In this document: positions 1 to 15,518 of the stretch, in pieces | Position numbering within the stretch: position 1 is the stretch's first letter | Layout of the letters: every line of letters starts with the position of its first letter | Source of the DNA: Thermoanaerobaculia bacterium | GTDB lineage: Bacteria; Acidobacteriota; Thermoanaerobaculia; Multivoradales; Multivoraceae | Assembly (NCBI GenBank): GCA_022823665.1 | Contig: JAJEHN010000037.1 | Span: forward strand, 115,439-179,438 | Length of the DNA stretch: 64,000 bases | Direction of reading: 5' to 3' | Notes under the pieces: generated by a model | Told to the model about the DNA's origin: nothing | Seen by the model: the letters and a program-made list of their open reading frames with translations, nothing else | The model's database searches: none | Translations under genes and position numbers: made by a program

Positions 1-788
1 GGCGCGAGCAGGCGGCCCTGCGGCGGGGAGCCGATGTCGTCGTCGGCACGCCGGGCCGGACGCTGGACCACCTGCGACAGGGGTCCCTCGATCTGGGCGC
101 GGTGCGGTTCCTCGTCCTGGACGAAGCGGACGAGATGCTGGACCAGGGTTTTGCCCGCGACGTCGAGGCGATCCTCAGCCGCACTCCCGCTTCAAGGCAG
201 ACGGCCCTGTTCTCGGCCACCATGCCGAACTGGGTGGCGAAGACGGCCAGGCAGTATCTGCGCAACCCGGTAAAGGTCGAGATCGACGCCGGGACGCAGG
301 AGTCGGCGGTGGAGCATCTCGTCTACTCGATCCAGAAGGACGACAAGATGGAGGCGCTACGGTCGCTGCTGGATGGCCGCAACGGCGACCCGATTCTCGT
401 CTTCGGTCGAACGAAACACGGGGTCAGGAAGCTGGCGAAGAAGCTCGATGCGCTCGGCTATCCGGTGGGGGCTCTGCAGGGCAACCTCAGCCAGGGCGCC
501 CGCGAGCGCGTGATGCGGGGTTTCCGTTCCGGCGCCGCGCCGATTCTGGTGGCGACGAATGTCGCCGCCCGCGGCATCGACGTCCAGGGCATCGGTCAGG
601 TCATCAACTTCGACCTGCCGGACTCCCAGCGGCTGTTCACCCACCGCGTGGGGCGAACCGGGCGGATGGGGAGTTCGGGCGAGGCGGTGACCTTCATCAC
701 GCCGGACGAAGAGCGGAAGTGGCGCGAGATCCAGCGGGGCCTGGGTCGACGGTTTCCCCGGCGGCCGTGGCGCGCACCGGCGCGCTGA
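1..788 (+). CDS. DEAD-box ATP-dependent RNA helicase (C-terminal part; 5' end lies outside window)
   Basis: Reading the frame from base 3 gives ...VVVGTPGRTLDHL... then VLDEADEML (motif II), SAT (motif III), HRVGRTGR (motif VI). No start codon before the window edge. Confidence 0.85.
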   Translation, partial: REQAALRRGADVVVGTPGRTLDHLRQGSLDLGAVRFLVLDEADEMLDQGFARDVEAILSRTPASRQTALFSATMPNWVAKTARQYLRNPVKVEIDAGTQESAVEHLVYSIQKDDKMEALRSLLDGRNGDPILVFGRTKHGVRKLAKKLDALGYPVGALQGNLSQGARERVMRGFRSGAAPILVATNVAARGIDVQGIGQVINFDLPDSQRLFTHRVGRTGRMGSSGEAVTFITPDEERKWREIQRGLGRRFPRRPWRAPAR

Positions 789-804
789 CCGACCGAGGTC
801 TTCG

Positions 805-1929
805 TCAGTCAGCCGCGGGTTCGGCCCGCCGGAGCTGCCTTGAGGACGATTCCCTGATGTGGATGTCGTGCTGGCTGAACGGGATCTCGATCCCGGCGGC
901 GGCGAACGCCTTGTGCGTCGCCTTGACCAGTTCGTGGGTGACGATGCCCCGAAGCACCGGCTCCTCGACCCAGCACAGCAGTTCGTAGTCGATGGACGAG
1001 GGGCCGAAGGTGCGGAACCGTACGCGAGGTTCGGGCTGTTTGCACACTTTGGGGTTGTCCGCGGCGACCTGGAGCTGGACCGCTTCGACGTGGTCCACGT
1101 CGCTGCCGTAGGCGACCCCGACGCGCACCCGGATCCGGTACTTGACGTGGGGCCCACCGCTTTCGTTGTTGATCTTCGCGTTCCCCATCACCGCGTTGGG
1201 GATCGTGACTTCGATGTCGTCGCGGGTCAGCAGGCGGGTGCTGCGGATGCCGATCTCGGTGACCATGCCGCGCTCGCCGCTGTCGAGGGTGATGAAGTCG
1301 CCGATCTTGTAGGGCCCGTCCGCGAAGATGAAGATGCCCGCGAACAGGTTCGCCAGCGTGTCGCGCGCCGCGAAGCCGACCGCCAGGCCGGCGATGCCGC
1401 CCGCCGCCAGGAGCCCCGAGACGTCGGCGCCCCAGGCGTTGATCACCAGGTAGGCCCCCAGGATCACGATCGCGACCTTGGCCAGGTTCTCGAACAGGGG
1501 CTCGGTGTGCCTGGAGACGAGAGCGCCCTCGCTCCTGCGCCGCGCCAGAGCCCGCAGCAGGACTCCCGAAGCGCGAAGCGCCGCGACGACCCAGAACACC
1601 AGCGCGACGGTCTGCAGCGCGTCGACGATCCTCTGCTCGGTGGCGCCGGCGAGCTGCAATCGAGCGACGCCCATCCGCAAGCCGATCAGGAAGACCGAGA
1701 TCCAGAGCGGCCAGTGGGCCGCCTCGAGCAGTCGGTCGTCGACTTCGGTCTTCGTCTTCCCGACGAGCTTCGTCGCGCCGAACTTGAGGATCCACCAGAC
1801 CACCCAGGCGCTCAGCGCGGAGACGAACGCGATTGCCAGCAACTGGAGCCACGCGCCCCAGAGCTCGTGCACGTAGATCGGAACCAGCTCTGCGAGCCGT
1901 TCCTCCAGTGCGGTCAGTTGCGCGTCCAC
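805..1929 (-). CDS. small-conductance mechanosensitive channel (MscS family)
   Basis: 374-aa ORF with N-terminal TM helices and a conserved MscS core (GGIAGLAVGFAARDTLANLFAGIFIFADGPYKIGDFI...GMVTEIGIRSTRL). Confidence 0.85.
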   Translation of the reverse strand: MDAQLTALEERLAELVPIYVHELWGAWLQLLAIAFVSALSAWVVWWILKFGATKLVGKTKTEVDDRLLEAAHWPLWISVFLIGLRMGVARLQLAGATEQRIVDALQTVALVFWVVAALRASGVLLRALARRRSEGALVSRHTEPLFENLAKVAIVILGAYLVINAWGADVSGLLAAGGIAGLAVGFAARDTLANLFAGIFIFADGPYKIGDFITLDSGERGMVTEIGIRSTRLLTRDDIEVTIPNAVMGNAKINNESGGPHVKYRIRVRVGVAYGSDVDHVEAVQLQVAADNPKVCKQPEPRVRFRTFGPSSIDYELLCWVEEPVLRGIVTHELVKATHKAFAAAGIEIPFSQHDIHIRESSSRQLRRAEPAAD

Positions 1930-1958
1930 CGGTTGCTACGATAGCCGACGGCTTGCCG

Positions 1959-2339
1959 ATGAACTGGCTGTTTGCGGGACTGTTGATGTGCGCCGCCTCG
2001 GTCGGCGCCGGTGCGTTCGGGGCTCACGGTTTGCGGTCCGCGCTGGACGCCGAGCACCTGGCGTTGTGGGAGACCGCGGCGCGCTACCTCATGTACGGCG
2101 GGGTGGTCGTCAGCCTCCTCGGTCTCGCCGGGCGGGTTTCGGCGGTCGACCTGCGGCTCGCCGGCTGGCTGCTGTTCGTTGGCTCCCTGATCTTCTCCGG
2201 CACCGTGGCGGTGATTGCCGTCGGCGGCCCCCGCTGGCTGGGCGCCATCACGCCGGTCGGCGGTACGTTGCTGATCGTCGGAATCCTCGTTTTCGCCTGG
2301 AGGATGCTGCAGGGTCCGGGGACTCCGGCCGGGTTCTGA
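1959..2339 (+). CDS. DUF423 (YgdD/TMEM256-like) small membrane protein
   Basis: ATG at 1959 (MNWLFAGLLM...) followed by four hydrophobic helices. The upstream part of ORF 1833..2339 is Arg/Pro-rich and was discarded. Confidence 0.65.
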   Translation: MNWLFAGLLMCAASVGAGAFGAHGLRSALDAEHLALWETAARYLMYGGVVVSLLGLAGRVSAVDLRLAGWLLFVGSLIFSGTVAVIAVGGPRWLGAITPVGGTLLIVGILVFAWRMLQGPGTPAGF

Positions 2340-2461
2340 AACAACGGGGGAATGCCGGTTCGACGCCGCGCGTTCGGACCATTCCCTACAGCCGCTGCGC
2401 GGTCTATGCTGCGGCCCCGGCCGCGCCCAGGCGGTCCTCACACTCCAGGAGATCAACTGAA

Positions 2462-4087
2462 ATGCCGAACGGCACCTTGCAAGTACCCGCGCCCCGCAAC
2501 GAACCCGTCCTCGACTACGCGCCCGGTTCCGCCGAGCGGGCCGCTCTCGAGGCACGGCTGAAGGAGATGCTCGGCGAGCGGGTCGAGATCCCGGTCCTGG
2601 CCGGCGGCCGCGAGATCCACACCGGCCGCACGCAGGACGTCGTCTGCCCTCACGATCACGGTCATGTTCTCGGCACCTGTCACCAGGCCGGCGCCGCGGA
2701 AGTCGAAGCGGCAGTGGCGGCCTCCCAGGAGGCCTGGCCGGCGTGGTCCGCGATGCCGTTCGAGGAGAGGGCGGCGATCTTCCTCCGCGCAGCCGAACTC
2801 CTGGCCGGTTCCTGGCGGCAGACGGTGAACGCCGCGACCATGCTGAACCAGTCGAAGACGTGCTACCAGGCCGAGATCGACTCGGCCTGCGAGCTGATCG
2901 ACTTCCTGCGCTTCAACGTCGCGTTCGCGGAGGAGCTCTACGGCCAGCAGCCGGTCTCGTCGCCCGGGATCTGGAACTACGTCGAGTACCGGGCTCTCGA
3001 GGGCTTCGTGTTCGCGGTCACGCCGTTCAACTTCACAGCGATCGCCGGCAACCTGCCGACGTCGGCGGCGATCATGGGCAACACGGTGCTGTGGAAGCCG
3101 GCATCGACGGCGCTGCTCTCGGGCTACTACGTGATGAAGCTGCTCGAAGAGGCGGGGTTGCCGCCGGGCGTGATCAACTTCGTGCCCGGCCCGGGCGCCA
3201 CGGTGGGCGATCCGGTCCTCGCCAGCCGCCACCTGGCGGGCATTCACTTCACCGGTTCGACGCCCGTGTTCCAGCGCATGTGGCGGACGATCGGCGACCG
3301 GATCCAGGGCTACGACACGTACCCGCGCATCGTCGGCGAAACCGGCGGCAAGGACTTCGTGTTCGCCCATCCGTCGGCGGACCCCGCGGCGCTGACGACG
3401 GCGTTGATCCGGGGCTCCTTCGAGTACCAGGGGCAGAAGTGCTCCGCGTCGTCCCGGGCCTATGTTCCGGCTTCGCTGTGGGGCGAGGTGCGCGAGCGGC
3501 TCTGCGCCGAGCTGGCGACTGTGTCGATGGGCTCTCCCGTCGACTTCTCGAACTTCATGGCCGCGGTCATCGACCAGTCGTCCTTCAACAACATCTCCGG
3601 CTACCTGGCCGACGCGGAGAACGGATCGCCGTACGAGATCGTCTCGGGAGGCGGACGGGACGATTCGGTCGGCTACTTCGTCGAGCCCACCGTCGTCCGC
3701 AGCGAGGACCCGCGCTCGCGCCTGATGAGCGAGGAGATCTTCGGACCGGTGCTGACTGTCTTCGTGTACGAGGACGGTGCGCTCGAGGAGACGCTGGAAC
3801 TCTGCGACACGACGAGCCCGTACGCGCTCACCGGCGCCGTGTTCGCCAACGACCGCGCGGCCGTCGCCCGCATCGGCGCCGCGCTGCGCAACGCCGCCGG
3901 CAACTTCTACATCAACGACAAGCCGACCGGCGCCGTCGTCGGCCAGCAGCCCTTCGGCGGCGCCCGGGCGTCCGGCACGAACGACAAGGCGGGCTCCATG
4001 GCGAACCTGATGCGCTGGACGTCCCAGCGGGCGGTCAAGGAGAACTTCGCCCCGCCGACGGACTACCGGTACCCGCACATGGGCTGA
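2462..4087 (+). CDS. pruA: L-glutamate gamma-semialdehyde (1-pyrroline-5-carboxylate) dehydrogenase
   Basis: ATG at 2462 (MPNGTLQVP...) verified. Aldehyde dehydrogenase family with FTGSTPVFQ, ETGGKDF, EYQGQKCSA and EEIFGPV motifs. The upstream 158 codons of ORF 1988..4087 are low complexity. Confidence 0.9.
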   Translation: MPNGTLQVPAPRNEPVLDYAPGSAERAALEARLKEMLGERVEIPVLAGGREIHTGRTQDVVCPHDHGHVLGTCHQAGAAEVEAAVAASQEAWPAWSAMPFEERAAIFLRAAELLAGSWRQTVNAATMLNQSKTCYQAEIDSACELIDFLRFNVAFAEELYGQQPVSSPGIWNYVEYRALEGFVFAVTPFNFTAIAGNLPTSAAIMGNTVLWKPASTALLSGYYVMKLLEEAGLPPGVINFVPGPGATVGDPVLASRHLAGIHFTGSTPVFQRMWRTIGDRIQGYDTYPRIVGETGGKDFVFAHPSADPAALTTALIRGSFEYQGQKCSASSRAYVPASLWGEVRERLCAELATVSMGSPVDFSNFMAAVIDQSSFNNISGYLADAENGSPYEIVSGGGRDDSVGYFVEPTVVRSEDPRSRLMSEEIFGPVLTVFVYEDGALEETLELCDTTSPYALTGAVFANDRAAVARIGAALRNAAGNFYINDKPTGAVVGQQPFGGARASGTNDKAGSMANLMRWTSQRAVKENFAPPTDYRYPHMG

Positions 4088-4117
4088 TGCGGTCGCCGCT
4101 TCGCGGCGCGTCTTCCT

Positions 4118-4164
4118 GGCCGCCTGCGGCGGCAGCGGGTCAGAAGACCCGCGCACCTACCGGA
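4118..4164. repeat. twin-hairpin REP-like element / probable bidirectional terminator (copy 1), between convergent pruA and fprA
   Basis: GCCGCC-tgc-GGCGGC (4119-4133) and GCGGGTC-agaa-GACCCGC (4135-4152), then GCACCTACCG. Its last bases supply the TAG stop of minus-strand fprA. A near-identical copy sits at 12186-12232. Confidence 0.7.
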
Positions 4165-5659
4165 GGCGGTTCACCGCCGCCATCATCGACTCGACGTCGG
4201 TGTACTTCTCGCGGACCTTGTTCTGGGCCTCTCCGAGGCGGACCTCGTCTTCGTCGAGCCGGTTCCAGTCGTCGAAGGTCACGAAGTCGACGCCGCGTTC
4301 GCGGAGCAGCTCGACGATCCTCTCCGGCGCCTTGTCGGGGTCGGCCGGCGCCGCTACGCCGTCGATGTCCTCGATCATCTTCTTGACCGTGGCGGTGGAG
4401 TCCGGGCTGTTCGTGCCAATCAGGCCGGTCGGGCCGCGCTTGGCCCAGCCGACGACGTACTGGCCCGGCACGACGTCGCCGTCCGGCTCTGTCTGCAGGC
4501 GGCCTTCGTCGTTGGGCAGGATGCCCCAGCGTTCATGGAACGGCACGCCCGGAAGGGGCACGCCGCGATAGCCGACCGCCTTGAACACGAGGTCGACGTC
4601 GAGGGTCTCGGTTTCGCCGGTGCCTCGTGGTCTCGGCGTGCCGTCGTCGGCGGCGTAGAGCTCGTTCTTCTCGATCACACACCGGCCAACCCGGCCGTCG
4701 TCGCCCGCCTGAAGGTCGATGGGTGAAACGAGGAACCGGCAGGTGACGAGGCGGTCGCCGTCGCCGGCTTGAGCGCCCGCGATCTCGCTCAGATAGGTCA
4801 CGTTGCGGCGTGCGCTGGGCGCGGCGCTTTCCTCGAGCCAGCTACTGCTGATCTCGTCGAGGTCCATCTCCGCTTCGGACACCAGCAGACTGGCGCCTTC
4901 GAGCGAACCGATCTCCTTGATCTCCTGGGGCGAGAACGCTGCCTGCGCCGGCCCACGGCGGCCGAGCAGGACGACCTCCTCGACCCCGCTCTCGCGGAGC
5001 ACGTCGAGCGATTCGGCGGTGATGTCGGTGGGAGCGAGCTCGTCCGTGTTCCGCACCAGGACGCGGGTCACGTCCATCGCCACGTTGCCGTTACCGACGA
5101 CGGCGACCCGCCGCGCCGAGGCCAGGTCGAAGCTGCGATCCTGGAAGTCGGGGTGGCCGTTGTACCAGCCGACGAACTCGGTCGCCGAGTGAACGCCCGG
5201 GAGGTCCTCGCCCGGAATCCCCATCTTGCGGTCCGACTCGTTGCCGGTGGCGTAGACGATGTGGTCGTAGTGCCGGCGGAGGTCATCGACCGAAATATCG
5301 CGGCCGAGTTCGACGTTGCCGAAGAAGCGGAAACGCTCATGCTGCGCGGTGCGGTTGTAGACCCTGATGACGTTCTTGATCTTCTGATGATCGGGGGCGA
5401 CGCCGCCCCGCACCAGGCCGAACGGAGTGGGCAGGCGGTCGAAGAGATCGACGTCGGCCTCGATGCCGTCGGCCTTGAACAGCGCGGCGATCGCGTAGAA
5501 ACCGCTCGGACCGGAGCCGATCACGGCGACGCGGAGGGGTCGTTCACTGCTGCCGAGAGGCCAGCTTTCTGAGGTCTCGTGCACTCGTTCCTCGCCTTCG
5601 CGCCCGGCCGACGCGATCTTCGTTCTGGTGTCGGGAAAGGTCGATCGGTCGGGAATCAT
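4157..5659 (-). CDS. fprA: ferredoxin--NADP+ reductase, FprA/adrenodoxin-reductase type
   Basis: N-terminal FAD fold VAVIGSGPSGFYA; second dinucleotide fold VAVVGNGNVAMD; C-terminal GWAKRGPTGLIGTN. Alternative GTG start at 5584 with an AAGGCGAGGA RBS would remove about 25 N-terminal residues. Confidence 0.8.
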   Translation of the reverse strand: MIPDRSTFPDTRTKIASAGREGEERVHETSESWPLGSSERPLRVAVIGSGPSGFYAIAALFKADGIEADVDLFDRLPTPFGLVRGGVAPDHQKIKNVIRVYNRTAQHERFRFFGNVELGRDISVDDLRRHYDHIVYATGNESDRKMGIPGEDLPGVHSATEFVGWYNGHPDFQDRSFDLASARRVAVVGNGNVAMDVTRVLVRNTDELAPTDITAESLDVLRESGVEEVVLLGRRGPAQAAFSPQEIKEIGSLEGASLLVSEAEMDLDEISSSWLEESAAPSARRNVTYLSEIAGAQAGDGDRLVTCRFLVSPIDLQAGDDGRVGRCVIEKNELYAADDGTPRPRGTGETETLDVDLVFKAVGYRGVPLPGVPFHERWGILPNDEGRLQTEPDGDVVPGQYVVGWAKRGPTGLIGTNSPDSTATVKKMIEDIDGVAAPADPDKAPERIVELLRERGVDFVTFDDWNRLDEDEVRLGEAQNKVREKYTDVESMMAAVNRLR

Positions 5660-5713
5660 AGCGTCGTACCGGCCGGCGCGGTTCCAGAGTGTGACAAGCC
5701 CGGTCGGCGGCAG

Positions 5714-5738
5714 TTGTCAATACGGCTAACTGTTGACA
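5714..5738. promoter_or_regulatory. inverted repeat TGTCAA-N12-TTGACA in the AT-rich divergent fprA / hypothetical-gene intergenic region; -35-like hexamers
   Basis: Sequence cagTTGTCAAtacggctaactgTTGACAtgattagacat. The only AT-rich patch in this GC-rich region. TTGTCA-N17-CATGAT is a possible sigma70-like promoter for the + strand gene. Confidence 0.4.
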
Positions 5739-5810
5739 TGATTAGACATACGCTGCTCCGGACCGCTCGGTCAAGCGGACCGCGGTGGGGAAACTCTGGG
5801 GGAGAATGCC

Positions 5811-7691
5811 ATGTCCCGTCCCTGTTGGCTCGCTGAGTACACCGCCCGCATCCCGGCGCGGTCGACCTTCGTTCTGTTTCTGCTGGGTGGCCTGATTCTG
5901 GGCGCCCTGCCCACCGCCGCGCAGCAGTGCGAGGGTGCGTCCGAGATCACCCGCCTCGGGGGCGCAAACCGATTCACGGCCCCCATAACGGACCAGGCGG
6001 GTCTGCAGGCCCTGTTCGTGGACCACCGGGACGAGATCCTGGCTCTCCTTGGCCAAGCCGGCTGGTCGGGCGACGCGGACGATCTGTTCGCCGCCGTCGC
6101 CGCGTGGCGAGGCGTCACATCGACGACGTTCGAACCCGGCCAGCGGATTCAGTGGATGTTCTTCCGTGAGCGTGGGCAGACGCCCACGGTCGGCACGAAC
6201 ATGTGCTGGGCCGGCGACGAGGCGTTCGCGGCCTGGGAGATCCGCTTCAACTCGAACGGGCGCTGGTACTCGATGATCGTGCCCGAGTCGTGCGGAAACC
6301 TGGCGCTCCTGGCCGAACGGCCGCTGCCGAAGGTCACGCTCGACCTGGACATCGGGGGCCTCTCCTGCGCGGACCAGACCTTCGACTTCCGGAGTTCCTG
6401 CACCGACGGTGACGCTTCGGTGACGGTGAGGATGCCGGACGGCACCGAGAGGGCGGCAGGCGACGGCAGCGTCTCCTTCCCCTTCGCGGATCAGGGCGAC
6501 TACACGGTCACGGCAACCTGCAACGCGATGTCGCCGCGCGGCGACCCGCTCGAGGACTCGATGAGCAGCGCCATCGCCGTCGGTTGTCCGAGTTGCCTGG
6601 TCGCCGCTGCCCCGGAGGAAGTCGATCTGGGGCAGTCATCGGTTCTGACGGTCGTTCCCAGGGCAGGGCACGGCGCCGAGGTGACCCGGGTCACGCTCGA
6701 CGGTCAGCCGCTTGCTTCGCCCTACACGAAGGAGATGACGCACGGAGGCGCGGACGCGTTCACCCACACGGTGACGGTCGAAACGAACACCGGTCAGAGC
6801 GCTCAGTGCTCGGCCGGGATGAAGGTTGCGCCGACGGTCACGGTGTCGATCGAGCCGGATCGCGTGTTGACCGGACAGACGGCGGTCGTCACGGTGGCGC
6901 CGGAGAATGGCGACGGTGCGCCGGTGACGGTCGCGCTGGACGGCCAGCCGCTGGCGGAGCCCTACGAACGCGCGGTCGCTCACGCGACGGATGGCGAGTT
7001 CACCCACACGGCGACAGTGGAGAACGCCGGCGGCAGTAACGAAGCGTCGGCGACGATGAAGGTCGATCGGCGGTGGACCCTGCTGCCGACGCTCAGCTTG
7101 CTGAGCGGTGACGACGTGCACATCTCGCTGCTGGGTCCGGACATGCGGGACAGGCTCAAGGCCTGCGTGGACGGAGTCGGCGTCGGCCTAGCCGCCGAGT
7201 ACCGCCTGAGCTATCCCATGGGGATCATGTTCGGGGCGGAGACGACCAACTGCGAAGTCGACTGGTATCTGCACCCGGGTGGCCGGACCGGCTACGACGG
7301 CGTTGACGTGGAGATGAAGAAGTTCTTCTTCGGGCTGAACTTCCATCTGACCCGCCCCGGCAGCCGTGTGGACTGGTGGCTGGGACCCCTGGTCGCCCAG
7401 CTCGACTACAGCTCTCCGACCCTCATGCCGACCGGGCTGGATGGCGTGTCGGTGGACGCCGTCTACCGTCCCCAGTGGTCCGGCGAGACGGTTCTCGGCG
7501 CCAACATGGGTCTGAAGATCCCGTTCAAGGCGGACTGCCCGGTCGGCCTGTACTTCGGCGCTTTCTGGCTCGACTCGTCGATGAAGGCGAAGAGTTCGGA
7601 GATCCGCGGCGAGGACGGGGCTCTCGCGCCCGCGTTCGAGCTGCGCAAGACGCCGGTCTACGTCAAGGCTGGAATCTCGATCGAGTTCTGA
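5811..7691 (+). CDS. hypothetical secreted protein: signal peptide, cysteine-rich N-domain, two tandem ~79-aa Ig-like repeats, C-terminal putative outer-membrane beta-barrel ending in Phe
   Basis: Hydrophobic N-terminus (FVLFLLGGLILGALPTAAQQ). Repeats VTLDGQPLASPY...FTHTVTVE / VALDGQPLAEPY...FTHTATVE. C-terminal 200 aa show alternating hydrophobic residues and end ...AGISIEF. Confidence 0.6.
   Translation: MSRPCWLAEYTARIPARSTFVLFLLGGLILGALPTAAQQCEGASEITRLGGANRFTAPITDQAGLQALFVDHRDEILALLGQAGWSGDADDLFAAVAAWRGVTSTTFEPGQRIQWMFFRERGQTPTVGTNMCWAGDEAFAAWEIRFNSNGRWYSMIVPESCGNLALLAERPLPKVTLDLDIGGLSCADQTFDFRSSCTDGDASVTVRMPDGTERAAGDGSVSFPFADQGDYTVTATCNAMSPRGDPLEDSMSSAIAVGCPSCLVAAAPEEVDLGQSSVLTVVPRAGHGAEVTRVTLDGQPLASPYTKEMTHGGADAFTHTVTVETNTGQSAQCSAGMKVAPTVTVSIEPDRVLTGQTAVVTVAPENGDGAPVTVALDGQPLAEPYERAVAHATDGEFTHTATVENAGGSNEASATMKVDRRWTLLPTLSLLSGDDVHISLLGPDMRDRLKACVDGVGVGLAAEYRLSYPMGIMFGAETTNCEVDWYLHPGGRTGYDGVDVEMKKFFFGLNFHLTRPGSRVDWWLGPLVAQLDYSSPTLMPTGLDGVSVDAVYRPQWSGETVLGANMGLKIPFKADCPVGLYFGAFWLDSSMKAKSSEIRGEDGALAPAFELRKTPVYVKAGISIEF
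6582..7067 (+). repeat. in-frame tandem duplication (~237 bp x 2) encoding two Ig-like repeats inside CDS 5811..7691
   Basis: DNA ctcgacggtcagccgcttgc...ttcacccacacggtgacggtcgaaacgaac vs ctggacggccagccgctggc...ttcacccacacggcgacagtggagaacgcc; protein period 79 aa. Confidence 0.7.
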
Positions 7692-7745
7692 CGGTTCCGG
7701 GACAGAGGCGGGCTGAGCCGCGCTTCCCGCCGCATCCGATGTAGT

Positions 7746-8960
7746 TTGGGGGCAGGCGGGGAACTTGCCGTGAAGCCGACGGAACTGGAAGAACGCTACG
7801 GCGCACGGAACTACGCGCCCCTCGACATCGTGATCGACCGCGCCGAGGGCGTGTGGGTCTGGGATGTCGACGGTCGCCGTTACCTCGACTGCCTCGCGGC
7901 CTACTCGGCGGTCAACCAGGGGCACTGCCATCCCCGGATCGTGGATGCCCTGATCCGGCAGAGCCGGAAGGTGGCGGTCACTTCGCGGGCGTTCCACAAC
8001 GCCGAACTCGGGGCGTTCTTTCGGGACGTCTGCGAACTGACCGGCTTCGAGCGGGCGCTGCCGATGAACACCGGCGCCGAGGCGGTGGAGACCGCGATCA
8101 AGCTGGCCAGAAAGTGGGCGTACACGCGCAAGGGCGTTTCTCCGGGACGAGCGGAGATCCTGGCGTTCGCCAACAACTTCCACGGCCGCACGACGACGAT
8201 CGTCGGCTTCTCGAGCGAGCCCCAGTACCGCGAGGGATTCGGCCCGTTCACGCCCGGCTTCGAGCTGCTGCCGTTCGGCGACGCCTCCGCCGCAAGGGCG
8301 GCGGTGGGTCCGGACACGGCGGCGGTCCTGATCGAGCCGATTCAGGGGGAGGGCGGCATCGTCGTGCCTCCAGACGGTTACCTTGCCGAACTGCGGGAGG
8401 TCTGCAGCGAGCGGAACGCGCTCCTGATCGTCGACGAGATCCAGTCCGGTCTGGGGCGGACAGGGCGGATGTTCGCGCATGAGCACGACGGCATACGGCC
8501 GGACGTGATGCTGCTCGGCAAGGCGCTCTCCGGCGGTCTGTATCCTGTGTCGGTGGTCGTGGCGGACGCGGAGATCATGGATGTCTTCCAGCCGGGCGAC
8601 CATGGCTCCACCTACGGCGGCAATCCGGTGGCGGCGGCGGTCGCGCGCGCCGCGCTGGCGGTGCTGCAGGACGAGGGCCTGATCGAGAACTCGGCGCGTC
8701 TCGGCGAGTACGCCCTGGGCCGGTTGCGAAGCGTCCGTTCGCCGCTGGTGCGCGAGGTCCGTGGCCGTGGACTGTGGATCGGAATCGAACTCGTTGAATC
8801 CGCCGGCGGCGCCCGTTCGTATTGCGAGAAACTGGCCGGGCAGGGACTGCTGTGCAAGGAAACCCATGATCACGTCATCCGATTCGCGCCGCCCCTGGTC
8901 ATCAGGCAGGAGGAACTGGACTGGGCGCTGGATCGCATCGAGGAAGTGCTGACGGCATGA
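7746..8960 (+). CDS. rocD: ornithine aminotransferase
   Basis: Near-collinear with known OATs: YGARNYAPL, AYSAVNQGHCHP, DEIQSGLGRTGRMFA, PDVMLLGKALSGG, HGSTYGGNP, LLCKETHDHVIRFAPPL. Confidence 0.9.
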   Translation: MGAGGELAVKPTELEERYGARNYAPLDIVIDRAEGVWVWDVDGRRYLDCLAAYSAVNQGHCHPRIVDALIRQSRKVAVTSRAFHNAELGAFFRDVCELTGFERALPMNTGAEAVETAIKLARKWAYTRKGVSPGRAEILAFANNFHGRTTTIVGFSSEPQYREGFGPFTPGFELLPFGDASAARAAVGPDTAAVLIEPIQGEGGIVVPPDGYLAELREVCSERNALLIVDEIQSGLGRTGRMFAHEHDGIRPDVMLLGKALSGGLYPVSVVVADAEIMDVFQPGDHGSTYGGNPVAAAVARAALAVLQDEGLIENSARLGEYALGRLRSVRSPLVREVRGRGLWIGIELVESAGGARSYCEKLAGQGLLCKETHDHVIRFAPPLVIRQEELDWALDRIEEVLTA

Positions 8961-9568
8961 CGGCCGACGCCGCGAGCGCGCCGCCGGCCGCGGCGTCGCC
9001 TCGGCCCGGGACTGTCGACGACCGGGTACGGGCGATCCGCCGGCCCCATCCGAAGCTGTTGCGTTACTACCTTCTCTTCTCGCTGATCACCGGACCGGCG
9101 TTCCCCGTCGTCTTCACCATCCTGTTCCTGCGCTATCGCACGCTGAGCTACGGCTTCGACGACGAAGGCGTGACGATGAGCTGGGGCGCCGTGTTCAAGC
9201 GCGAGATCAGCCTTACTTACAGCCGCATCCAGGACATCCACGTGCAGAGCAACGCGGTCGAGCGATGGTTCGGTCTCTCGCGTCTGCTGGTCCAGACGGC
9301 GAGCGGTTCGGCCAAGGCCGAGATGAAGGTCGAGGGCCTGCTGGAACTGTCGGCGGTTCGCAACTTCATGTACAGCCGGATGCGCGGCGCGCGTACGGTG
9401 GCCCCAACCGGTGCAGTTGCCGCTACGGCCGCTGGGCCCGGTGCCGCCGCGCCCGCGGCGACTTCCGACTCGGCCGCCCTCGCCGCGACTCTGCGAGAGA
9501 TCGCCCGCGAAGTCACCGCGATCCGTGGGGAACTGGAGCGGCGCGGGTTGGATGGACGCAACCGATGA
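8957..9568 (+). CDS. YdbS-like membrane protein with bacterial PH (bPH_2) domain
   Basis: ATGA overlap with the rocD stop. Hydrophobic hairpin LLRYYLLFSLITGPAFPVVFTILFL followed by PH-like GVTMSWGAVFKREISLTYSRIQDIHVQSNAVERWFGLSRLLVQTASG. Confidence 0.55.
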   Translation: MTADAASAPPAAASPRPGTVDDRVRAIRRPHPKLLRYYLLFSLITGPAFPVVFTILFLRYRTLSYGFDDEGVTMSWGAVFKREISLTYSRIQDIHVQSNAVERWFGLSRLLVQTASGSAKAEMKVEGLLELSAVRNFMYSRMRGARTVAPTGAVAATAAGPGAAAPAATSDSAALAATLREIAREVTAIRGELERRGLDGRNR

Positions 9569-10428
9569 CCGGCGAGCCCGCCGCCGGGGCAGCCGGCACC
9601 CGAATGCCCAGGGGCCTGAAGCGCCTTCTGCTCTGGCTGTTCCAGGTCGAAGAGCGTCCCGAGCCTCCCCCGGGATCGCCGGAGTCGCTCAGGGTGTTCC
9701 GCGCTTCGCCGCGGTTCTTCCGGTACAGCGTGCTCAAGTGGGCCATCGGGCAGATGTTCGCCCTGGTGGGCCTCGTCGGGTCGGCCATCGGGCTCGGTTT
9801 CGTCGAGATCGGGAACGAAGCCGGGAACGTGGTGGTCGAGCTCCTCGAAGAACGCGCCGCGGGCGCGGCTCTCTGGTTCAGGTTCACCGAGACGCTGGCG
9901 CCTTTCCTGATCGTCCTCTTCGTGGTTCAGTTCCTGACGTCGTTCTCCGTGCTTCGCCTGGGCTACGAGATGCGCTGGTACATGGTGAGCGACCGCGCCC
10001 TTCGCATCCGGTACGGCATCTACAGCCTCCGCGAACAGACGATGACGGTCGTGAACATCCAGAACATGGCGGTGAAACGCGGTCCCCTGCAGCGTCTGTT
10101 CGGCATCGCCGACCTGGAGATCCGCACCGCCAGCGGCGGCGGTTCGGACGATGACGACGAGGACAGCCTGAACCGCGGTCTGCTGCAGGGCCTGGACAAC
10201 GCGGAAGAGGTACGCAACCTGTTGCTGGCGTCGTTGCGGCAGAGTCGGGACGCCGGTCTCGGCGATCCCGACGACCGGCCGGCCGGGCCCGCGGTACCGG
10301 CGGCGTCAAGGGAGGATCGTGGTCCGGGCGGAGCGGAAGACGCTTCGGTTCTCATTGCCGCGGGTGACCTGCTCGCCGAGTGCCGGGCTCTGCGGCGAAC
10401 CGTGGCCGGGACGGCGGAAGCGCTGTGA
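9565..10428 (+). CDS. YdbT-like membrane protein with bPH_2 domain
   Basis: ATGA overlap with the previous gene (ATG 9565). TM hairpin WAIGQMFALVGLVGSAIGLGFVEI; PH-like MTVVNIQNMAVKRGPLQRLFGIADLEIRTASG; acidic tail. Confidence 0.5.
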   Translation: MTGEPAAGAAGTRMPRGLKRLLLWLFQVEERPEPPPGSPESLRVFRASPRFFRYSVLKWAIGQMFALVGLVGSAIGLGFVEIGNEAGNVVVELLEERAAGAALWFRFTETLAPFLIVLFVVQFLTSFSVLRLGYEMRWYMVSDRALRIRYGIYSLREQTMTVVNIQNMAVKRGPLQRLFGIADLEIRTASGGGSDDDDEDSLNRGLLQGLDNAEEVRNLLLASLRQSRDAGLGDPDDRPAGPAVPAASREDRGPGGAEDASVLIAAGDLLAECRALRRTVAGTAEAL

Positions 10429-10460
10429 CTCGTCCGACCCCTGTCGGCTCGTAACCTCCG

Positions 10461-11381
10461 ATGCCCGAGCTTCCGGACGTCGAGGTCTACCGCGAAGCGC
10501 TCGAGCAACGGGTCGCGGGCCGCGAACTCGTCCGCGTCCGCCTGCGGAGTCCGTTCCTGCTCCGTTCCGTGCGCCCGCCGCTTTCCGAGGCGGAAGGTCG
10601 CACGGTCGCGTCCGTGCGCCGCGTCGGCAAGCGGGTCGTCTTCGTTCTGGAGGGGGAGCTGTTCCTCGCCATCCACCTGATGGTCGCCGGCCGGTTCCGC
10701 TGGGGCGGACCGTCGGCGAAGGTGCCGGGCCGGGTGGGCCTGGCCGCCTTCGACTTCGGCTACGGCACCCTGCTGCTGACCGAGGCCGGCAGCAAGCGCA
10801 GGGCGGCGATGCACCTGGTCGCGGGTGAAGACGGTCTGGCTGCTCTGGACCGCGGGGGGCTGGAGGTGCTGCACGCCGGACCGGCGGCATTCAGGACGCG
10901 CCTCAAGGCGGAGAACCACACGCTGAAGCGGGCGCTCATCGACCCGCGGTTGTTCAGCGGTATCGGCAATGCCTACTCGGACGAGATCCTGCATCGCGCG
11001 CGCCTGTCGCCGATGCGCTGGACCACCCGGCTGACCGACGAGCAGGTCGATCGGCTGTATCGGTCCGCGAGAGACGTGCTGACGGAGTGGACGGAGCGCC
11101 TCAGGGAGCAGGCCGGCGGTCGGTTTCCGACCAAGGTGACCGCCTTCCACGAGGATATGGCGGTCCATGGCCGCTACCGCGAACCATGCCCGCGTTGCGC
11201 GGCGCCGGTGCAACGGATCGTCTACGCGGAGAACGAGTGCAACTACTGCGCTCGCTGCCAGACCGGTGGCCGGCTGCTCGCGGACCGGGCCCTCTCGCGC
11301 CTGCTGAAGAAGGACTGGCCGAGGACGGTCGAAGAACTGGAAGAGCGCCTGGGCGCTGGCGCCGGGGAGCCGGCCGGCTGA
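10461..11381 (+). CDS. Fpg/Nei-family DNA glycosylase/AP lyase (Fpg-like N-terminus)
   Basis: N-terminal MPELPDVEV (catalytic P2/E3), H2TH region (NAYSDEILHRARLSP), C-terminal zinc finger CPRC...CNYCARC. Confidence 0.85.
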   Translation: MPELPDVEVYREALEQRVAGRELVRVRLRSPFLLRSVRPPLSEAEGRTVASVRRVGKRVVFVLEGELFLAIHLMVAGRFRWGGPSAKVPGRVGLAAFDFGYGTLLLTEAGSKRRAAMHLVAGEDGLAALDRGGLEVLHAGPAAFRTRLKAENHTLKRALIDPRLFSGIGNAYSDEILHRARLSPMRWTTRLTDEQVDRLYRSARDVLTEWTERLREQAGGRFPTKVTAFHEDMAVHGRYREPCPRCAAPVQRIVYAENECNYCARCQTGGRLLADRALSRLLKKDWPRTVEELEERLGAGAGEPAG

Positions 11382-12187
11382 TGGGCGTTGCGCCCGGGTT
11401 GTCGGGCCTGACCGACTGTCATGCCCACCTCTGCGACGGCTCGTTCGCAGGCGATCTCGGCGACGTGCTCGCACGGGCCCGCGACGCCGGCGTCGAGGCG
11501 GTGGTCGCGGTCGGCGAGACGCGAGTGGACGCGGAGCGTAACCTCGAGTTGACGGAGGCCTATCCCGGCATCGTACGACCGACCGCCGGCCTCTATCCGA
11601 CCCATCTCGATCCGGCGGAAGCGGAGCAGGTCGCGGGCCTGATCCGCCGGGAACGTTGTCGTCTGGCGGCCATCGGCGAGGTCGGCCTCGACCGCTGGAA
11701 GGTGCGCGACGAGCGCGACCTGGCGGTTCAGCGGGAGATCTTCGCGCTGTTCATCGACTTGTCCATCGAACTCGATCTGCCGCTCAACGTCCATTCGCGT
11801 TCGGCCGGCCACTACGCGATCGACCTCTTGCGGGAGCGCGGGGCGACGCGGGTGCAGCTCCACGCCTTCGACGGCCGGGCGGCCCGGGCCGAGCCAGGGG
11901 TGGAAGCGGGCTACTTCTTCTCCGTGCCGCCGTCCGTCGTGCGTTCTCCCCAGAAGCAGAAGCTGGTGCGGCGCCTGCCGCTGTCCTGCCTGCTGCTGGA
12001 GACGGACAGCCCCGTGCTGGGACCGGAGAGGGATCAGCGCAACGAACCGGCGAACGCGGCCGTTTCGCTCGCGGCGATCGCGGAGATCAAGGGTCTGCCG
12101 GTGTCGGAGGTGGCCGCGGCGGTGAGAGAGAACACGGCGCGGCTGTACGGCAGAGCGGAGCCGGCCTCCGGCCGGCGCGTTTCCTAG
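11381..12187 (+). CDS. TatD-family metal-dependent hydrolase/DNase
   Basis: ATG 11381 overlaps the fpg stop (TGATG). Motifs LTDCHAHL, GEVGLD, NVHSRSA, LLETDSP. Confidence 0.85.
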   Translation: MGVAPGLSGLTDCHAHLCDGSFAGDLGDVLARARDAGVEAVVAVGETRVDAERNLELTEAYPGIVRPTAGLYPTHLDPAEAEQVAGLIRRERCRLAAIGEVGLDRWKVRDERDLAVQREIFALFIDLSIELDLPLNVHSRSAGHYAIDLLRERGATRVQLHAFDGRAARAEPGVEAGYFFSVPPSVVRSPQKQKLVRRLPLSCLLLETDSPVLGPERDQRNEPANAAVSLAAIAEIKGLPVSEVAAAVRENTARLYGRAEPASGRRVS

Positions 12188-12232
12188 CCGCCTTCGGCGG
12201 CAGCGGGTCGGAAGACCCGCGCACCTACCGAA
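12186..12232. repeat. twin-hairpin REP-like element / probable bidirectional terminator (copy 2), between convergent tatD and M23 peptidase
   Basis: GCCGCC-ttc-GGCGGC (12187-12201) and GCGGGTC-ggaa-GACCCGC (12203-12220), then GCACCTACCG. Supplies the TAG stop of the minus-strand M23 gene (…cgg tag). Confidence 0.7.
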
Positions 12233-13055
12233 CGGTGGCGATCGAGGCCGGCTCGCCGAGGAGCAGCGCCGGGTCGACGCGTTCGCCCTGCCAGCGGATG
12301 CCGAAGTGCAGGTGCGGTCCGGTGGATCGTCCGGTCGAGCCGACGGTGCCGATCCGGCGCCCGCGGGACACCTCGTCCCCCTGCTCGACGAACACCTCGT
12401 GCAGGTGGAAGTACATGCTGATCAGGCCGTTGCCGTGGTCGAGAAAGACCGCGTTGCCGGAGAAGAAGAACTCCCCGGCCAGGGCGACGACCGCGTCACC
12501 GGTGGCCAGTACCGGCGTGCCCTGGGGCACGGCGTAGTCGGCGCCGGTGTGGGGCGAGCGCGGCTCGCCGTTGATGATTCGCTTCGCGCCGAAGCGGCCG
12601 CCGGCCGGCATCTCCTCGAGCGGTGGCCCCAGCGGCAGCGAGAACCTCGGTCTGCCCTGCCGCCCCCACAGCTTGCCGATCAGGGCGTTCTCACGCTGCA
12701 CGCGAGCCAGGTTCTCGGGCGACAGGTCGACGCGGCTCCGGTCCTTGATCTCGAGTCGCTGCACGGAGTAGGGGTACTCGCCGAGGCCGATTTGCAGCTT
12801 CTCCCGGCGGCCGTCCCGGTCGCGCTCCGCGATCACGTCGGCGGTTCGGGTCAGGCCGACCGGCACCAGGCAGCCGGGCTCTCCGGCGACCACGGTGGGT
12901 GCGAAGGCGCGGTCGCGGACAAGGCAGCGTTCGATGCCTTCGCCCGGCCAGTGGACGAGGCTTCCGGGGGCCGCGGTCTGGGCGGCCAGCGGATGAGCGA
13001 TGACGGTGAAAACAGCGATGGCGCCAAGTGTGGCGATGGAGCGGAACGGGTCCAT
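12225..13055 (-). CDS. M23-family (LytM-type) metallopeptidase, secreted
   Basis: Signal peptide (IATLGAIAVFTVIAHPLAAQ). M23 motifs HTGADYAVPQGTPV and GPHLHFGIRW. Confidence 0.85.
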   Translation of the reverse strand: MDPFRSIATLGAIAVFTVIAHPLAAQTAAPGSLVHWPGEGIERCLVRDRAFAPTVVAGEPGCLVPVGLTRTADVIAERDRDGRREKLQIGLGEYPYSVQRLEIKDRSRVDLSPENLARVQRENALIGKLWGRQGRPRFSLPLGPPLEEMPAGGRFGAKRIINGEPRSPHTGADYAVPQGTPVLATGDAVVALAGEFFFSGNAVFLDHGNGLISMYFHLHEVFVEQGDEVSRGRRIGTVGSTGRSTGPHLHFGIRWQGERVDPALLLGEPASIATVR

Positions 13056-13079
13056 TGCACAACTATAGCCAATCGTGCA
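13056..13079. promoter_or_regulatory. palindrome TGCAC-N14-GTGCA in the divergent M23 peptidase / amidase intergenic region
   Basis: Sequence ttGCACaactatagccaatcGTGCAt, immediately upstream of the minus-strand start at 13055. Confidence 0.25.
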
Positions 13080-13174
13080 TAGGCGAGCCCGGATGCGAGG
13101 GCGGTCATGCGGGGAGGACGCGGTACGCTTGGCCTCTTGTGCGGCGATCGGTTGCCGCGTCGGAGAGGTGCTCC

Positions 13175-14629
13175 GTGAGTCTGAGAGCGACGTATCTGGC
13201 CAGCGACGGGCTGGCGCTGGCCGAACTGCTGAGGACCGGCGAGCTGGCCCCGGCCGAGGCGGTCGAGTGCGCGGCCGAGATCGCTTCGGAACTGAACGGA
13301 GACCTGAACGCGGTCGTCTGTTCGGACTTCGAGCGCGCCGCCGCCGGCGCGGCCGAGGCCGTGGCGGCGGGTGGGCCGTTCGCGGGCGTGCCCTACCTGC
13401 TGAAGGACCTCTATGCGAACGCGGTGGGCTTGCCGCTCACGAACGGCAGCCGGCTCTTCGAGGGCAGCGTGCCGGACCACGACTCGGAGATGGTGAGCCG
13501 CTACCGGCAGGCAGGGCTCCTGATCGCGGGACGGACGGCTTCGCCCGAGTTCGGGCTGACGACCAGCACCGAGTCCGCGGTCTTCGGGCAGACGCGCAAC
13601 CCCTGGAACCTGGAGCACATCGCCGGCGGTTCCTCGGGCGGCGCCGCGGCGGCCGTCGCCGCCGGCATCGTGCCGGCCGCCCACGCCAGCGACGGCGGCG
13701 GATCGATCCGCATCCCGGCCTCGTGCTGCGGACTCTTCGGACTCAAGCCGAGCCGGGCCCGGGTCTCGCTGGCGCCCGACGCCGGCGAGGGTTGGGCCGG
13801 ATTCTCGGTGCAGCACTGCGTGAGTCGCAGCGTTCGCGACAGCGCCGCGCTTCTCGATGCGGTTGCGGGTCCGGTGGCGGGAGATCCGTACTGCGCGCCG
13901 CCGCCCGAACGGAGCTTCCTCGAGGAAACCGGGCGCGAACCGGGACGGCTGCGGATCGCGCTGGCCCTGGAGGCGTTCAACGGCGCCCCGGTAGAGGAGG
14001 CGTGTGCCGCGGCGGCCCGCGGAGCGGCCGAGCTCTGCGTGCGACTCGGGCACGAGGTTGCCCACGCGGTGCCGGAGATCGACGCGAACGCGCTCGGCCT
14101 CGCGACCCGGCTGATCGTCGGCGCGAACGTGCGCGCCACGATCGCGGAGCGCTGCGAGGTTCTCGGCCGCGACGCCCGGGAGGACGAACTGGAGCCGCTC
14201 ACCTGGGCGACGGCCGCCACGGGCGAGCAGAGCGACGCCGCCGCCTACGCGCGGGCGACCCGCACGGTTCACGCCGTGGGACGCCGGCTGGCCGCGTTCT
14301 TCGACGAGGGCTTCGACGTGCTGCTGTCGCCGACGATGGCGGCGCCGCCGGCGAAGCTCGGCGTGCTGTCGCTTTCGAACCGGGGCGACGACTATCTACC
14401 GGCCTTGCTGCAGACGATCGGTTTCACCCAGTTGATGAACGTCTGTGGTAATCCCGCCGCCTCGGTGCCGCTCGGCTGGAGCGGGGCGAACGGCGGTCTG
14501 CCGGTCGGCGTCCAGATCGCCGCGCCGTTGGGCGGCGAGGGAGTGCTGCTCCGGCTGGCGGCGCAGCTCGAGCGGGAGCGTCCCTGGATCGACCGGAAGC
14601 CGCCCTGCTCGGCGTGGCGGAGCGGCTAG
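13175..14629 (+). CDS. amidase (amidase-signature family)
   Basis: GTG 13175 preceded by GGAGAGG. AS motifs GGSSGGAAAAVAAG and GGSIRIPAS; family Ser-cisSer-Lys residues present. Confidence 0.85.
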   Translation: MSLRATYLASDGLALAELLRTGELAPAEAVECAAEIASELNGDLNAVVCSDFERAAAGAAEAVAAGGPFAGVPYLLKDLYANAVGLPLTNGSRLFEGSVPDHDSEMVSRYRQAGLLIAGRTASPEFGLTTSTESAVFGQTRNPWNLEHIAGGSSGGAAAAVAAGIVPAAHASDGGGSIRIPASCCGLFGLKPSRARVSLAPDAGEGWAGFSVQHCVSRSVRDSAALLDAVAGPVAGDPYCAPPPERSFLEETGREPGRLRIALALEAFNGAPVEEACAAAARGAAELCVRLGHEVAHAVPEIDANALGLATRLIVGANVRATIAERCEVLGRDAREDELEPLTWATAATGEQSDAAAYARATRTVHAVGRRLAAFFDEGFDVLLSPTMAAPPAKLGVLSLSNRGDDYLPALLQTIGFTQLMNVCGNPAASVPLGWSGANGGLPVGVQIAAPLGGEGVLLRLAAQLERERPWIDRKPPCSAWRSG

Positions 14630-14635
14630 GGAGCC

Positions 14636-15517
14636 GTGGCGCGGCCGCGGCAGACGACCTTGAAGCCCGCGAGTCTCGCGGCGCCGGCGCTTCTCGTCGC
14701 CCTTGCATGGCCGGCCGCGGCCGCCGAACCCCCCTGGCAGCGACTCGAGTTCGAGGCGAAGAAGCTGTTCCTCTCGGCGGGCGCCGCGGTCGAGTTCGAG
14801 CCCGCCGCGGAGGTCCCGGTGGACGAGCGCTGCGGAGGCAAGCCGGCGATGCCCGGTTCGGCCGCGCGGATCCGGATCGAGTCCACGATGTTCGGCCGTC
14901 GCTCGGAGTCCTCCCTGTGGTTCGATCCGGGCAGCCTGAAGGCCCATCTTCGCGTCCAGGAAGAAAGGGGCAGCCGGAACCGCTACAAGCGGTACACGTT
15001 CTGTGAGGGAAGCGTCGAGGCCGAGCGCGCGACTCCCAATCCTGGCGAGGCCGGTCTTCCGGTCGCGGAATGGACCCATCGTTATCCGCTCCATCATCCC
15101 GTTCCGCAAGGACTCGAGGCGCCGCTGTCGGAGCCCTCGGCGCTGCTCCATCTCGTCGGACGGCTGGCGGCGCTACCGTCCGGAGCAGGGGCGGAAACCC
15201 CGTGGACGGTGCCGATGTTCTCGAACCAGAGGGTGCTGGCGGTGCGGATCGAACGAGACCCGGAGACTCTGACCGCGCCTCCATCGTTCTCGGTGGCCGG
15301 CGGCGAGGCGCCGGCGCAGTTGACGCTCGTTCGTTTTTCGATGACGCCGGTGGCCTACGGGCCCGAGGGCGGTGCGGAGGACTTCGAGTTGCTGGGGCTC
15401 GAGGGCGCGATCGAGATCGTGGCGGCGAAGGAACTCCAGGTGCCCGTGTCGATCAGCGGTCGCCTTCCGCCCGCGGGGCGGGTCGCGGTCCGGCTGCGCC
15501 ACGTGAAGTTGCGTTAG
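14636..15517 (+). CDS. hypothetical secreted protein
   Basis: Signal peptide LAAPALLVALAWPAAAAEP. No recognisable motifs. Packed between the amidase (6-bp gap) and the regulator (1-bp gap). Confidence 0.5.
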   Translation: MARPRQTTLKPASLAAPALLVALAWPAAAAEPPWQRLEFEAKKLFLSAGAAVEFEPAAEVPVDERCGGKPAMPGSAARIRIESTMFGRRSESSLWFDPGSLKAHLRVQEERGSRNRYKRYTFCEGSVEAERATPNPGEAGLPVAEWTHRYPLHHPVPQGLEAPLSEPSALLHLVGRLAALPSGAGAETPWTVPMFSNQRVLAVRIERDPETLTAPPSFSVAGGEAPAQLTLVRFSMTPVAYGPEGGAEDFELLGLEGAIEIVAAKELQVPVSISGRLPPAGRVAVRLRHVKLR

Positions 15518-15518
15518 G

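Follow-up and report, generated by a model that had tools for sequence, protein, structure and literature searches.

A REP-like, GTAG-tagged hairpin cassette at two convergent gene junctions in a narrow clade of Thermoanaerobaculia, with a putative role at RNA 3′ ends

The DNA analyzed here (the window) is a stretch of 64,000 nucleotides that forms part of a 669-kb MAG scaffold (ENA ERZ23491513), and its nearest named relatives are a Candidatus Multivorans sp. and a Thermoanaerobaculia MAG (Acidobacteriota). Two of its convergent gene junctions carry copies of one hairpin-forming element. At the first, a plus-strand gene with an Aldedh domain (pruA-like, ending at 4087) faces a minus-strand gene with a Pyr_redox_2 domain (fprA-like, 4157–5659); at the second, a plus-strand TatD gene (ending at 12187) faces a minus-strand Peptidase_M23 gene (12225–13055). 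The first-pass annotation had placed the element between convergent genes, pruA against fprA and tatD against an M23 peptidase, which holds at the level of Pfam families except that copy 2 partly codes for the end of TatD. Both copies lie 0 nt from the minus-strand gene between the convergent ORFs. The other convergent junctions in the window are 12–16 nt long or overlapping, and most have no such element. The mechanical ORF of the aldehyde dehydrogenase (1988–4087, plus strand) has 699 aa where relatives have 541 aa, and its Pfam domain begins at residue 214; translation probably starts ~158 codons further in, counted from 1988.

The two copies form a same-strand repeat of 59 nt with 93% identity and one indel, of which an ungapped part of 50 nt (4113–4162 and 12181–12230) is 94% identical. 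The 35-nt pattern proposed at first pass matches at 4128–4162 and 12196–12230 only, with 0 mismatches, and matches none of 100 shuffles. The repeat is far beyond chance, and the element reported to recur at 4118–4164 and 12186–12232 is present at both places, though it is longer than had been claimed. Comparison of alleles that hold the insertion (filled) with alleles that lack it (empty) gives the approximate extent of the whole inserted block, which at copy 1 extends from the G that precedes TAG as far as the last base ahead of the pruA stop. The cassette measures ~73–76 nt in the window and up to ~100 nt in one allele.

4088–4160, minus strand: complete insertion of copy 1 between the fprA-like and pruA-like genes, type I allele (from filled versus empty alleles)
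4104–4162, minus strand: copy 1 of the 59-nt repeat core (blastn-short; covariance model, 104.7 bits)
12153–12228, minus strand: complete insertion of copy 2 between the M23 and tatD genes (from filled versus empty alleles)
12173–12230, minus strand: copy 2 of the repeat core (blastn-short; covariance model, 91.6 bits)

The copies differ at four places: one base in each of two loops, a G/A difference that makes the tatD TAG, and one indel in a T-rich linker. That the stems are the same and the loops different, as first described, is borne out, since both stems are exact in both copies; the count of 0 stem differences has, taken alone, p~0.1. A third hairpin upstream of each copy, here called hairpin 0, differs in sequence between the copies and was overlooked at first pass. 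Read on the minus strand, the order is GTAG, 7-bp hairpin, 6-bp hairpin, A-rich linker and third hairpin.

4094–4108: hairpin 0 of copy 1 (type I form), CGCCGC-ttc-GCGGCG, after which the plus strand has the T-richer linker GTCTTCCT
4119–4133: hairpin 1 of copy 1, GCCGCC-tgc-GGCGGC (stem arms 4119–4124/4128–4133)
4135–4152: hairpin 2 of copy 1, GCGGGTC-agaa-GACCCGC (stem arms 4135–4141/4146–4152)
12160–12176: hairpin 0 of copy 2 (type II-like form), GCCGGCC-tcc-GGCCGGC, within the TatD tail
12187–12201: hairpin 1 of copy 2, GCCGCC-ttc-GGCGGC (stem arms 12187–12192/12196–12201)
12203–12220: hairpin 2 of copy 2, GCGGGTC-ggaa-GACCCGC (stem arms 12203–12209/12214–12220)

RNA folding, a check proposed in the first-pass annotation, predicts that either strand forms two or three stable hairpins (z-scores of −2 to −3.5 relative to shuffled sequences). 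Among the short intergenic gaps of the window, as delimited by a rough gene call, none folds as strongly as the fprA/pruA spacer, at −0.53 kcal/mol per nt where the others range from −0.17 to −0.38. No allele shows a change in the stems of hairpins 1 and 2, while loops and linkers vary, and stems without variation give no information on covariation. In hairpin 0 the position and the GAA loop are constant, but four stem pairs differ, on both sides each, between type I and type II or copy 2; such two-sided changes could reflect selection for pairing or a swap of the entire hairpin. In folds of minus-strand RNA of the 59-nt core the two hairpins are closed by a 5-bp helix, GGUGC/GCGCC, which uses G-U pairs and so forms on the minus strand only; type II keeps the pairing via one more G-U pair. 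Since the helix competes with hairpin 0 and is gone in folds of longer sequence, it is not relied on here. An alternative single long hairpin, CGGUAGGUG...UGCCGCCG, was dropped because the type II allele breaks it.

The proposal that the element doubles as a bidirectional intrinsic terminator fails the canonical test. On the minus strand no T/U run follows the hairpins, whose tails are UGCCGCC and CAGGAAGAC, and on the plus strand a weak run follows hairpin 0 only (GUCUUCCU / GCGUUUCCU). A terminator scan of positions 1–20000 found five sites, none of them at the element, against 7.3 expected from shuffles. Canonical bidirectional intrinsic terminators likewise consist of a GC-rich hairpin module common to two convergent genes in a very short spacer, but their hairpin lies between an A-tract and a U-tract so that a U-run is present on both strands, and they are not normally 93% identical at unrelated loci, as these two copies are. 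A putative non-canonical 3′-end function is nonetheless plausible. Rfam gave no gathering-level match over the whole 64-kb window, and around copy 1 at E≤10 the best match reached ≤19 bits compared with gathering scores of 37–94. No promoter-like site was found in or near the element.

The effect of the element on its flanking genes can be read directly from their ends. In both minus-strand genes the 3′ end of the repeat supplies the last Arg codon and the stop (CGG TAG), as had been noted at first pass, and at copy 2 the insertion also supplies a new C-terminus to the gene on the other strand, in place of the ...LYG(S/A/AGS) with which TatD ends in relatives.

4157–4160, minus strand: GTAG tag of copy 1, with TAG 4157–4159 the stop of the Pyr_redox_2 (fprA-like) gene
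12225–12228, minus strand: GTAG tag of copy 2, with TAG 12225–12227 the stop of the M23 peptidase gene
12152–12187, plus strand: insertion-encoded TatD C-terminal tail RAEPASGRRVS (11 codons) and its TAG stop (12185–12187)
12244–12254: native M23 coding 11-mer GAGGCCGGCTC, perfectly complementary to 12158–12168 at the far end of the insertion

Syntenic loci, each taken with flanks of 10 kb, were collected via M23 and TatD homologues, the M23 proteins being 78% to 99% identical to that of the window. At each junction, eight to ten relatives retain the gene order M23-tatD-fpg-bPH-bPH-aminotransferase-626-aa protein-fprA-pruA. The idea that the two direct repeats delimit an 8-kb island was rejected, as the interval is housekeeping synteny found in all relatives and has no integrase. 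At M23/tatD the insertion is found in the window and in L038/L039, which have the same sequence from a different sample. Eight relatives (L034–L037, L009–L011 and L006) are empty at this junction, with stops that overlap as CTAG; L008 has a 10-nt spacer and L007 two inserted genes. The fprA/pruA junction holds a type I allele in the window, L034, L035, L004 and L005 and a type II allele in L010 and L037, the latter with a 13-nt tandem duplication, GGTGCGCGGGTCT, and the third hairpin GCCGGCC-GAA-GGCCGGC. It is empty in L008 (4-nt spacer) and in L036 and L038 (12-nt spacer), and is occupied by other sequence in L006, L007, L009 and L011. Empty alleles read CGC TGA CCCC TCA (L008) and CGC TGA CCCG TCA (L036), whereas filled ones read CGG TAG, then 69 nt, then TCA.

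All four combinations (fprA/pruA only, M23/tatD only, both, as in the window, and neither) occur in strains that are ~92–99% identical in most 500-nt windows. Because filled and empty alleles are found in near-identical strains, the difference is an insertion/deletion polymorphism. The allele comparison indicates that both junctions are ancestrally empty, with M23/tatD stops overlapping as CTAG and fprA/pruA stops 4 nt apart. Relative to the empty alleles, 76 nt take the place of 6 nt (CTAGGN) at M23/tatD, and 73 nt the place of ~8 nt at fprA/pruA; neither junction shows a target-site duplication between filled and empty alleles. Both target sites end ..YTCG|CTRR, a likeness that proves nothing because there are only two sites. 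L038 has CGG TAG at its fprA end although the element is absent there, so part of the GTAG tag may be native sequence. The insertion was assembled identically from two samples, and the reading frames are intact on both sides.

The fprA/pruA junction is an insertion hot spot. L006, whose M23 is 91% identical, has a HigB-like toxin and HTH_3 antitoxin pair (18844–19445) there instead of the hairpin element, and L007 has an unrelated 200-nt spacer (20318–20517). In L036 the final ~40 nt of fprA recur in decayed form past the present stop (~18550–18620), and in L011 the spacer holds a decayed copy of the pruA 3′ end (~18720–18810). These gene 3′-end remnants look like signs of allele replacement by recombination at the junction. 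In L009 (18844–20828) fprA is followed by an SNF2/ResIII helicase gene and not by pruA, a rearranged locus. At the other junction, the two small genes between M23 and tatD in L007 (10835–12284) include one with a Type_ISP_C domain (a restriction-enzyme fragment).

Several lines of evidence bear on how copy 2 arrived. The window is 98–99% identical overall to L034/L035 but 91–96% identical over 11000–12500, so that this stretch is a recombinant patch and the tatD/junction segment came from an unsampled lineage via homologous recombination. Over window positions 2000–23000 identity to L034/L035 alternates between ~99–100% and 91–96% in blocks of 0.5–1.5 kb (for example 10001–10500, 11001–12500 and 21001–22000), and these blockwise jumps indicate frequent homologous recombination within the population. 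A TatD protein of 91% identity (P0122) has the variant tail RAEPVSGRRVS, which at the protein level shows the M23/tatD insertion in another lineage as well. A further TatD (P0139/L040) with a tail of the same length, RVPPRPAGVVS, was set aside: its coding sequence is different and its contig stops 26 nt past the stop codon, which makes it uninformative. Copy 2 is itself a mosaic, having no 13-nt duplication (as in type I) and a loop, linker and third hairpin as in type II, so its donor is not the resident copy 1 of this genome and is not among the alleles compared. The best reading is that the fprA/pruA copy is the older one and that the M23/tatD copy would be a secondary duplicative insertion. 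The case for mobility is essentially that of one duplication event, with two loci only.

The 11-nt inverted match GAGCCGGCCTC (12158–12168 and 12244–12254), of a kind found in ~0.6% of random 141-nt windows, puts an ‘EPAS’ motif in the tails of both TatD and M23, and it may be a template-switch microhomology or a TIR-like arm. Two independent Logan assemblies stop at the same base in the element, after ..GCTGCCGCC (L002, 3826–3860; L039, 10419–10453). This break point is the exact base at which the two copies part, as is typical where a repeat cuts a contig short.

The first-pass annotation had further suggested a repeat family, and here the searches speak against it. Neither blastn-short nor a covariance model (R1, filters off) found a third copy in the 64-kb window; the next best match of the model after the two copies, at 17.7 bits, lies inside an amidase gene. 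The same model found no diverged extra copies in 17 related loci (269 kb). In species-representative genomes the pattern GTAGGTGCGCGGGTC-N3-6-GACCCGC matched only the orthologous fprA/pruA site in L004 and L005, with one exact match each; a match in a Myxococcales MAG (L003) was discarded as chance. In JGI metagenomes the pattern GACCCGCTNCCGCCGNAGGCGGC gave 22 matches (L012–L033), all unrelated. The other half of hairpin 2 is missing from every one of them, and by eye many look like Gly/Ser-rich or lipobox-like coding sequence. This pattern was poorly chosen, because GCCGCCTGCGGCGG is a common lipobox coding string. The palindrome GCCGCCTGCGGCGGC is likewise a frequent coding string in GC-rich genomes. 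Viral contigs (pattern scan) and plasmid and phage records (BLAST) gave no match. The collection pattern scans need exact matches of 20–22 specified bases, so that diverged copies are missed, and for the source genome the scope is 64 kb. The genome-wide pattern search suggested at first pass, as carried out over the window and the public collections, thus returned for the most part no further copies, and in place of a repeat family the element is a low-copy, ordinary strain-level insertion with two loci.

The closest likeness is to the GTAG-tagged REPs, such as Pseudomonas GTAG-1 and Stenotrophomonas SMAG, in which GTAG also adjoins a GC-rich palindrome and which also lie 3′ of ORFs, tightly between convergent ORFs, give a TAG that serves as stop, and vary in presence between strains (Di Nocera et al. 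2013, PMC3733652; Nunvar et al. 2010, PMC2817692). These REPs have stems of 6–9 bp, lie mostly between unidirectional or convergent ORFs, are <20 bp from both ORFs when these are convergent, and often provide the TAG stop (PMC3733652); RNA 3′-end stabilization or termination have been proposed as their roles. In the present element hairpin 2 is a 7-bp perfect stem in both copies and all alleles, minus-strand GGTAG-GTGC precedes the stem in every filled allele with a 4-nt gap (GTGC) between tag and stem, and the element adjoins ORF 3′ ends with the TAG of the tag as the minus-strand stop. It departs from REPs in having one or two copies per genome (two in the 64 kb) instead of tens to hundreds dispersed, three different hairpins whose order is fixed, where REPs form single units or inverted dimers (BIME/REPIN), the 4-nt tag-to-stem distance, and a host among the Thermoanaerobaculia. 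No Y1/HUH (RAYT) transposase domain turned up among the scanned ORFs of the window or the genes called at the related loci, a scope of <5% of the genome. The element is REP-like in anatomy and behavior and is not assigned as a member of a REP family.

Of the earlier label ‘REP/MITE-like’, therefore, the REP-like anatomy and the insertion behavior stand and the MITE hallmarks do not. The terminator-forming MITEs (Neisseria Correia, enterobacterial ERIC/IRU, pneumococcal RUP/BOX) are likewise small, non-autonomous and strain-polymorphic, and likewise fold in mRNA 3′ regions, where they can terminate or stabilize transcripts, but they occur in many copies, with terminal inverted repeats and target-site duplications, and this element shows none of the three. 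Its inverted repeats are those of the internal hairpins, and the 11-nt inverted match of copy 2 has no counterpart at copy 1. The in-frame absorption of a palindrome, here as 11 codons at the TatD C-terminus, also recalls the Rickettsia palindromic elements (RPE) and intragenic REPs; RPEs, in contrast, are 100–150 bp long, multi-copy and usually internal to ORFs, whereas here the extreme C-terminus is replaced at one locus.

We favor the interpretation that this is a REP-like, GTAG-tagged hairpin cassette present at two loci in a narrow clade, whose role as a 3′-end insulator or stabilizer is inferred, and assign it a probability of about 0.5. In the collections searched, the cassette was confined to one narrow clade, the Candidatus Multivorans-like Thermoanaerobaculia (Acidobacteriota). 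On this reading it was inserted exactly at the stop codons of convergent pairs whose stops formerly overlapped or lay 4–10 nt apart, and the minus-strand TAG of the GTAG tag serves as the stop of the fprA-like and M23 genes. The fprA/pruA copy, which has two allelic forms, would have come first, with the M23/tatD copy a later duplicative insertion that the window strain carries inside a recombinant patch. The copying itself may have been a REP-like single-strand transposition or a microhomology-guided template switch. Once transcribed, the cassette would form the 3′ end of the flanking mRNAs, and its hairpins would part genes that otherwise transcribe straight into each other, presumably via non-canonical termination or pausing together with the shielding of RNA 3′ ends from exonucleases. 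Such a 3′-end role (insulation, pausing, stabilization) appears the most plausible function, with neutrality a serious rival: in many close strains one junction or both are free of the cassette, which leaves room for no more than a small or conditional benefit and allows that the element may have no effect on fitness.

A functionless origin is possible, though on balance doubtful. In that case a one-off microhomology template switch or illegitimate recombination would have copied the fprA/pruA spacer, the hairpins would be quasi-palindromes perfected by template-switch mutation, and neutral alleles would since have been shuffled by recombination. The restriction to two loci is what such an accident would leave, as are the short junction identities (CG..TAGG, at the left) and the perfect match between M23 coding sequence and the far end of the insertion. 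The coexistence of filled and empty alleles in near-identical strains, the visibly mosaic window and the unrelated junk at the same junctions elsewhere (the gene-end remnants of L011 and L036, the long spacer of L007) are in keeping with it too. Less easily accommodated are stems of hairpins 1 and 2 that stay constant as loops and linkers change, a hairpin 0 altered on both arms with pairing kept, retention of the fprA/pruA element in strains with flanks ~1–8% different (500-nt windows), and the clean in-frame stop that TatD gained within the insertion. These features suggest at least weak selection. A genuine GTAG REP, which a RAYT transposase encoded elsewhere would have copied via single-stranded DNA and which would be of very low copy number or newly founded, is unlikely. 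A GTAG lying 4 nt upstream of a 7-bp stem at convergent ORF 3′ ends and giving a TAG stop (as in PMC3733652), target sites that end alike (..YTCG|CTRR) and the presence/absence among strains that is typical of mobile DNA all speak for it. High copy number, on the other hand, defines REPs, and here there are two loci, with one exact match per related genome; the window ORFs scanned hold no Y1 transposase; three different hairpins do not make a REP unit or an inverted REP pair; and the CGG TAG of L038, which lacks the element, leaves room for a partly native GTAG.

Three further readings depart more strongly from the favored one. A new minimal mobile element aimed at convergent overlapping or abutting stops (~YTCG^CTRR), which would bring its own stop and an insulating block and be moved by a putative enzyme, is quite improbable; if it were true, the cassette would be a self-contained ‘gene-separator’ that gives a stop to one gene and can give an in-frame tail and stop to the other. 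The prospects are slimmer still for a specific regulatory RNA (a 3′UTR-derived sRNA) or a protein site (for a recombinase or regulator) common to both loci. The minus-strand-only closing helix would favor such a role and would explain the conserved GCACC tail, but it competes with hairpin 0 and is lost in longer folds, Rfam is silent even at E≤10, no promoter-like site is present, the flanking genes are functionally unlinked and element-free strains are common. The motif GGTGCGC resembles the XerC arm of E. coli dif; a dif/Xer-like site was rejected on anatomy, since the centre is 4 nt long, an AT-rich core is missing and there are two copies. That the cassette is a decayed coding remnant or an assembly artefact is hardly credible. 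On the plus strand 4113–4160, across hairpins 1–2, reads F-L-A-A-C-G-G-S-G-S, lipobox-like as are many of the 22 JGI matches, but a lipoprotein or small ORF was rejected there (no start codon, no signal-peptide architecture). The remnant reading falters likewise on the lack of a start codon and of an n-/h-region upstream, and the frame continues antisense to fprA; copy 2, moreover, has Phe where the lipobox has Cys, and the 14 fprA/pruA junctions compared contain no intact homologous lipoprotein gene. An artefact might be suspected from the two Logan contigs that end inside the element, yet breaks within a repeat are what a real repeat gives, and against it stand the identical assembly from two samples and the intact frames.

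Read as a REP-like cassette, the element is a natural example of how spacers and 3′-end hairpins arise between convergent genes that originally overlapped at their stop codons. One species-level population offers all four allele combinations, a TatD C-terminus remodelled in frame and spread borne by recombination. A REP-like anatomy, with a GTAG tag that donates a TAG stop, is thereby found in Thermoanaerobaculia at a copy number far below that which defines REPs, and it could be a family at birth or a one-off duplication. No major question is opened by it; in practical terms it is useful chiefly as a strain marker and as a modest case of genome micro-evolution.

Elsewhere in the window, a run of defence-type genes occupies 34959–47107 on the minus strand. 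ARAGORN calls a 94-nt tRNA-Gly (anticodon ACC) on the plus strand at 41599–41692, opposite the 3′ part of the GmrSD-like ORF of that run; Rfam gives no gathering-level tRNA at these positions, and the call is probably a false positive. The run itself comprises DUF499 (34959–37775) and DUF1156 (37836–40910) genes, a gene for a protein with GmrSD_N and Schlafen AlbA_2 domains (41561–43678) and an SNF2/ResIII helicase gene with a NOV_C domain (43742–47107), and looks like a restriction or anti-phage island.
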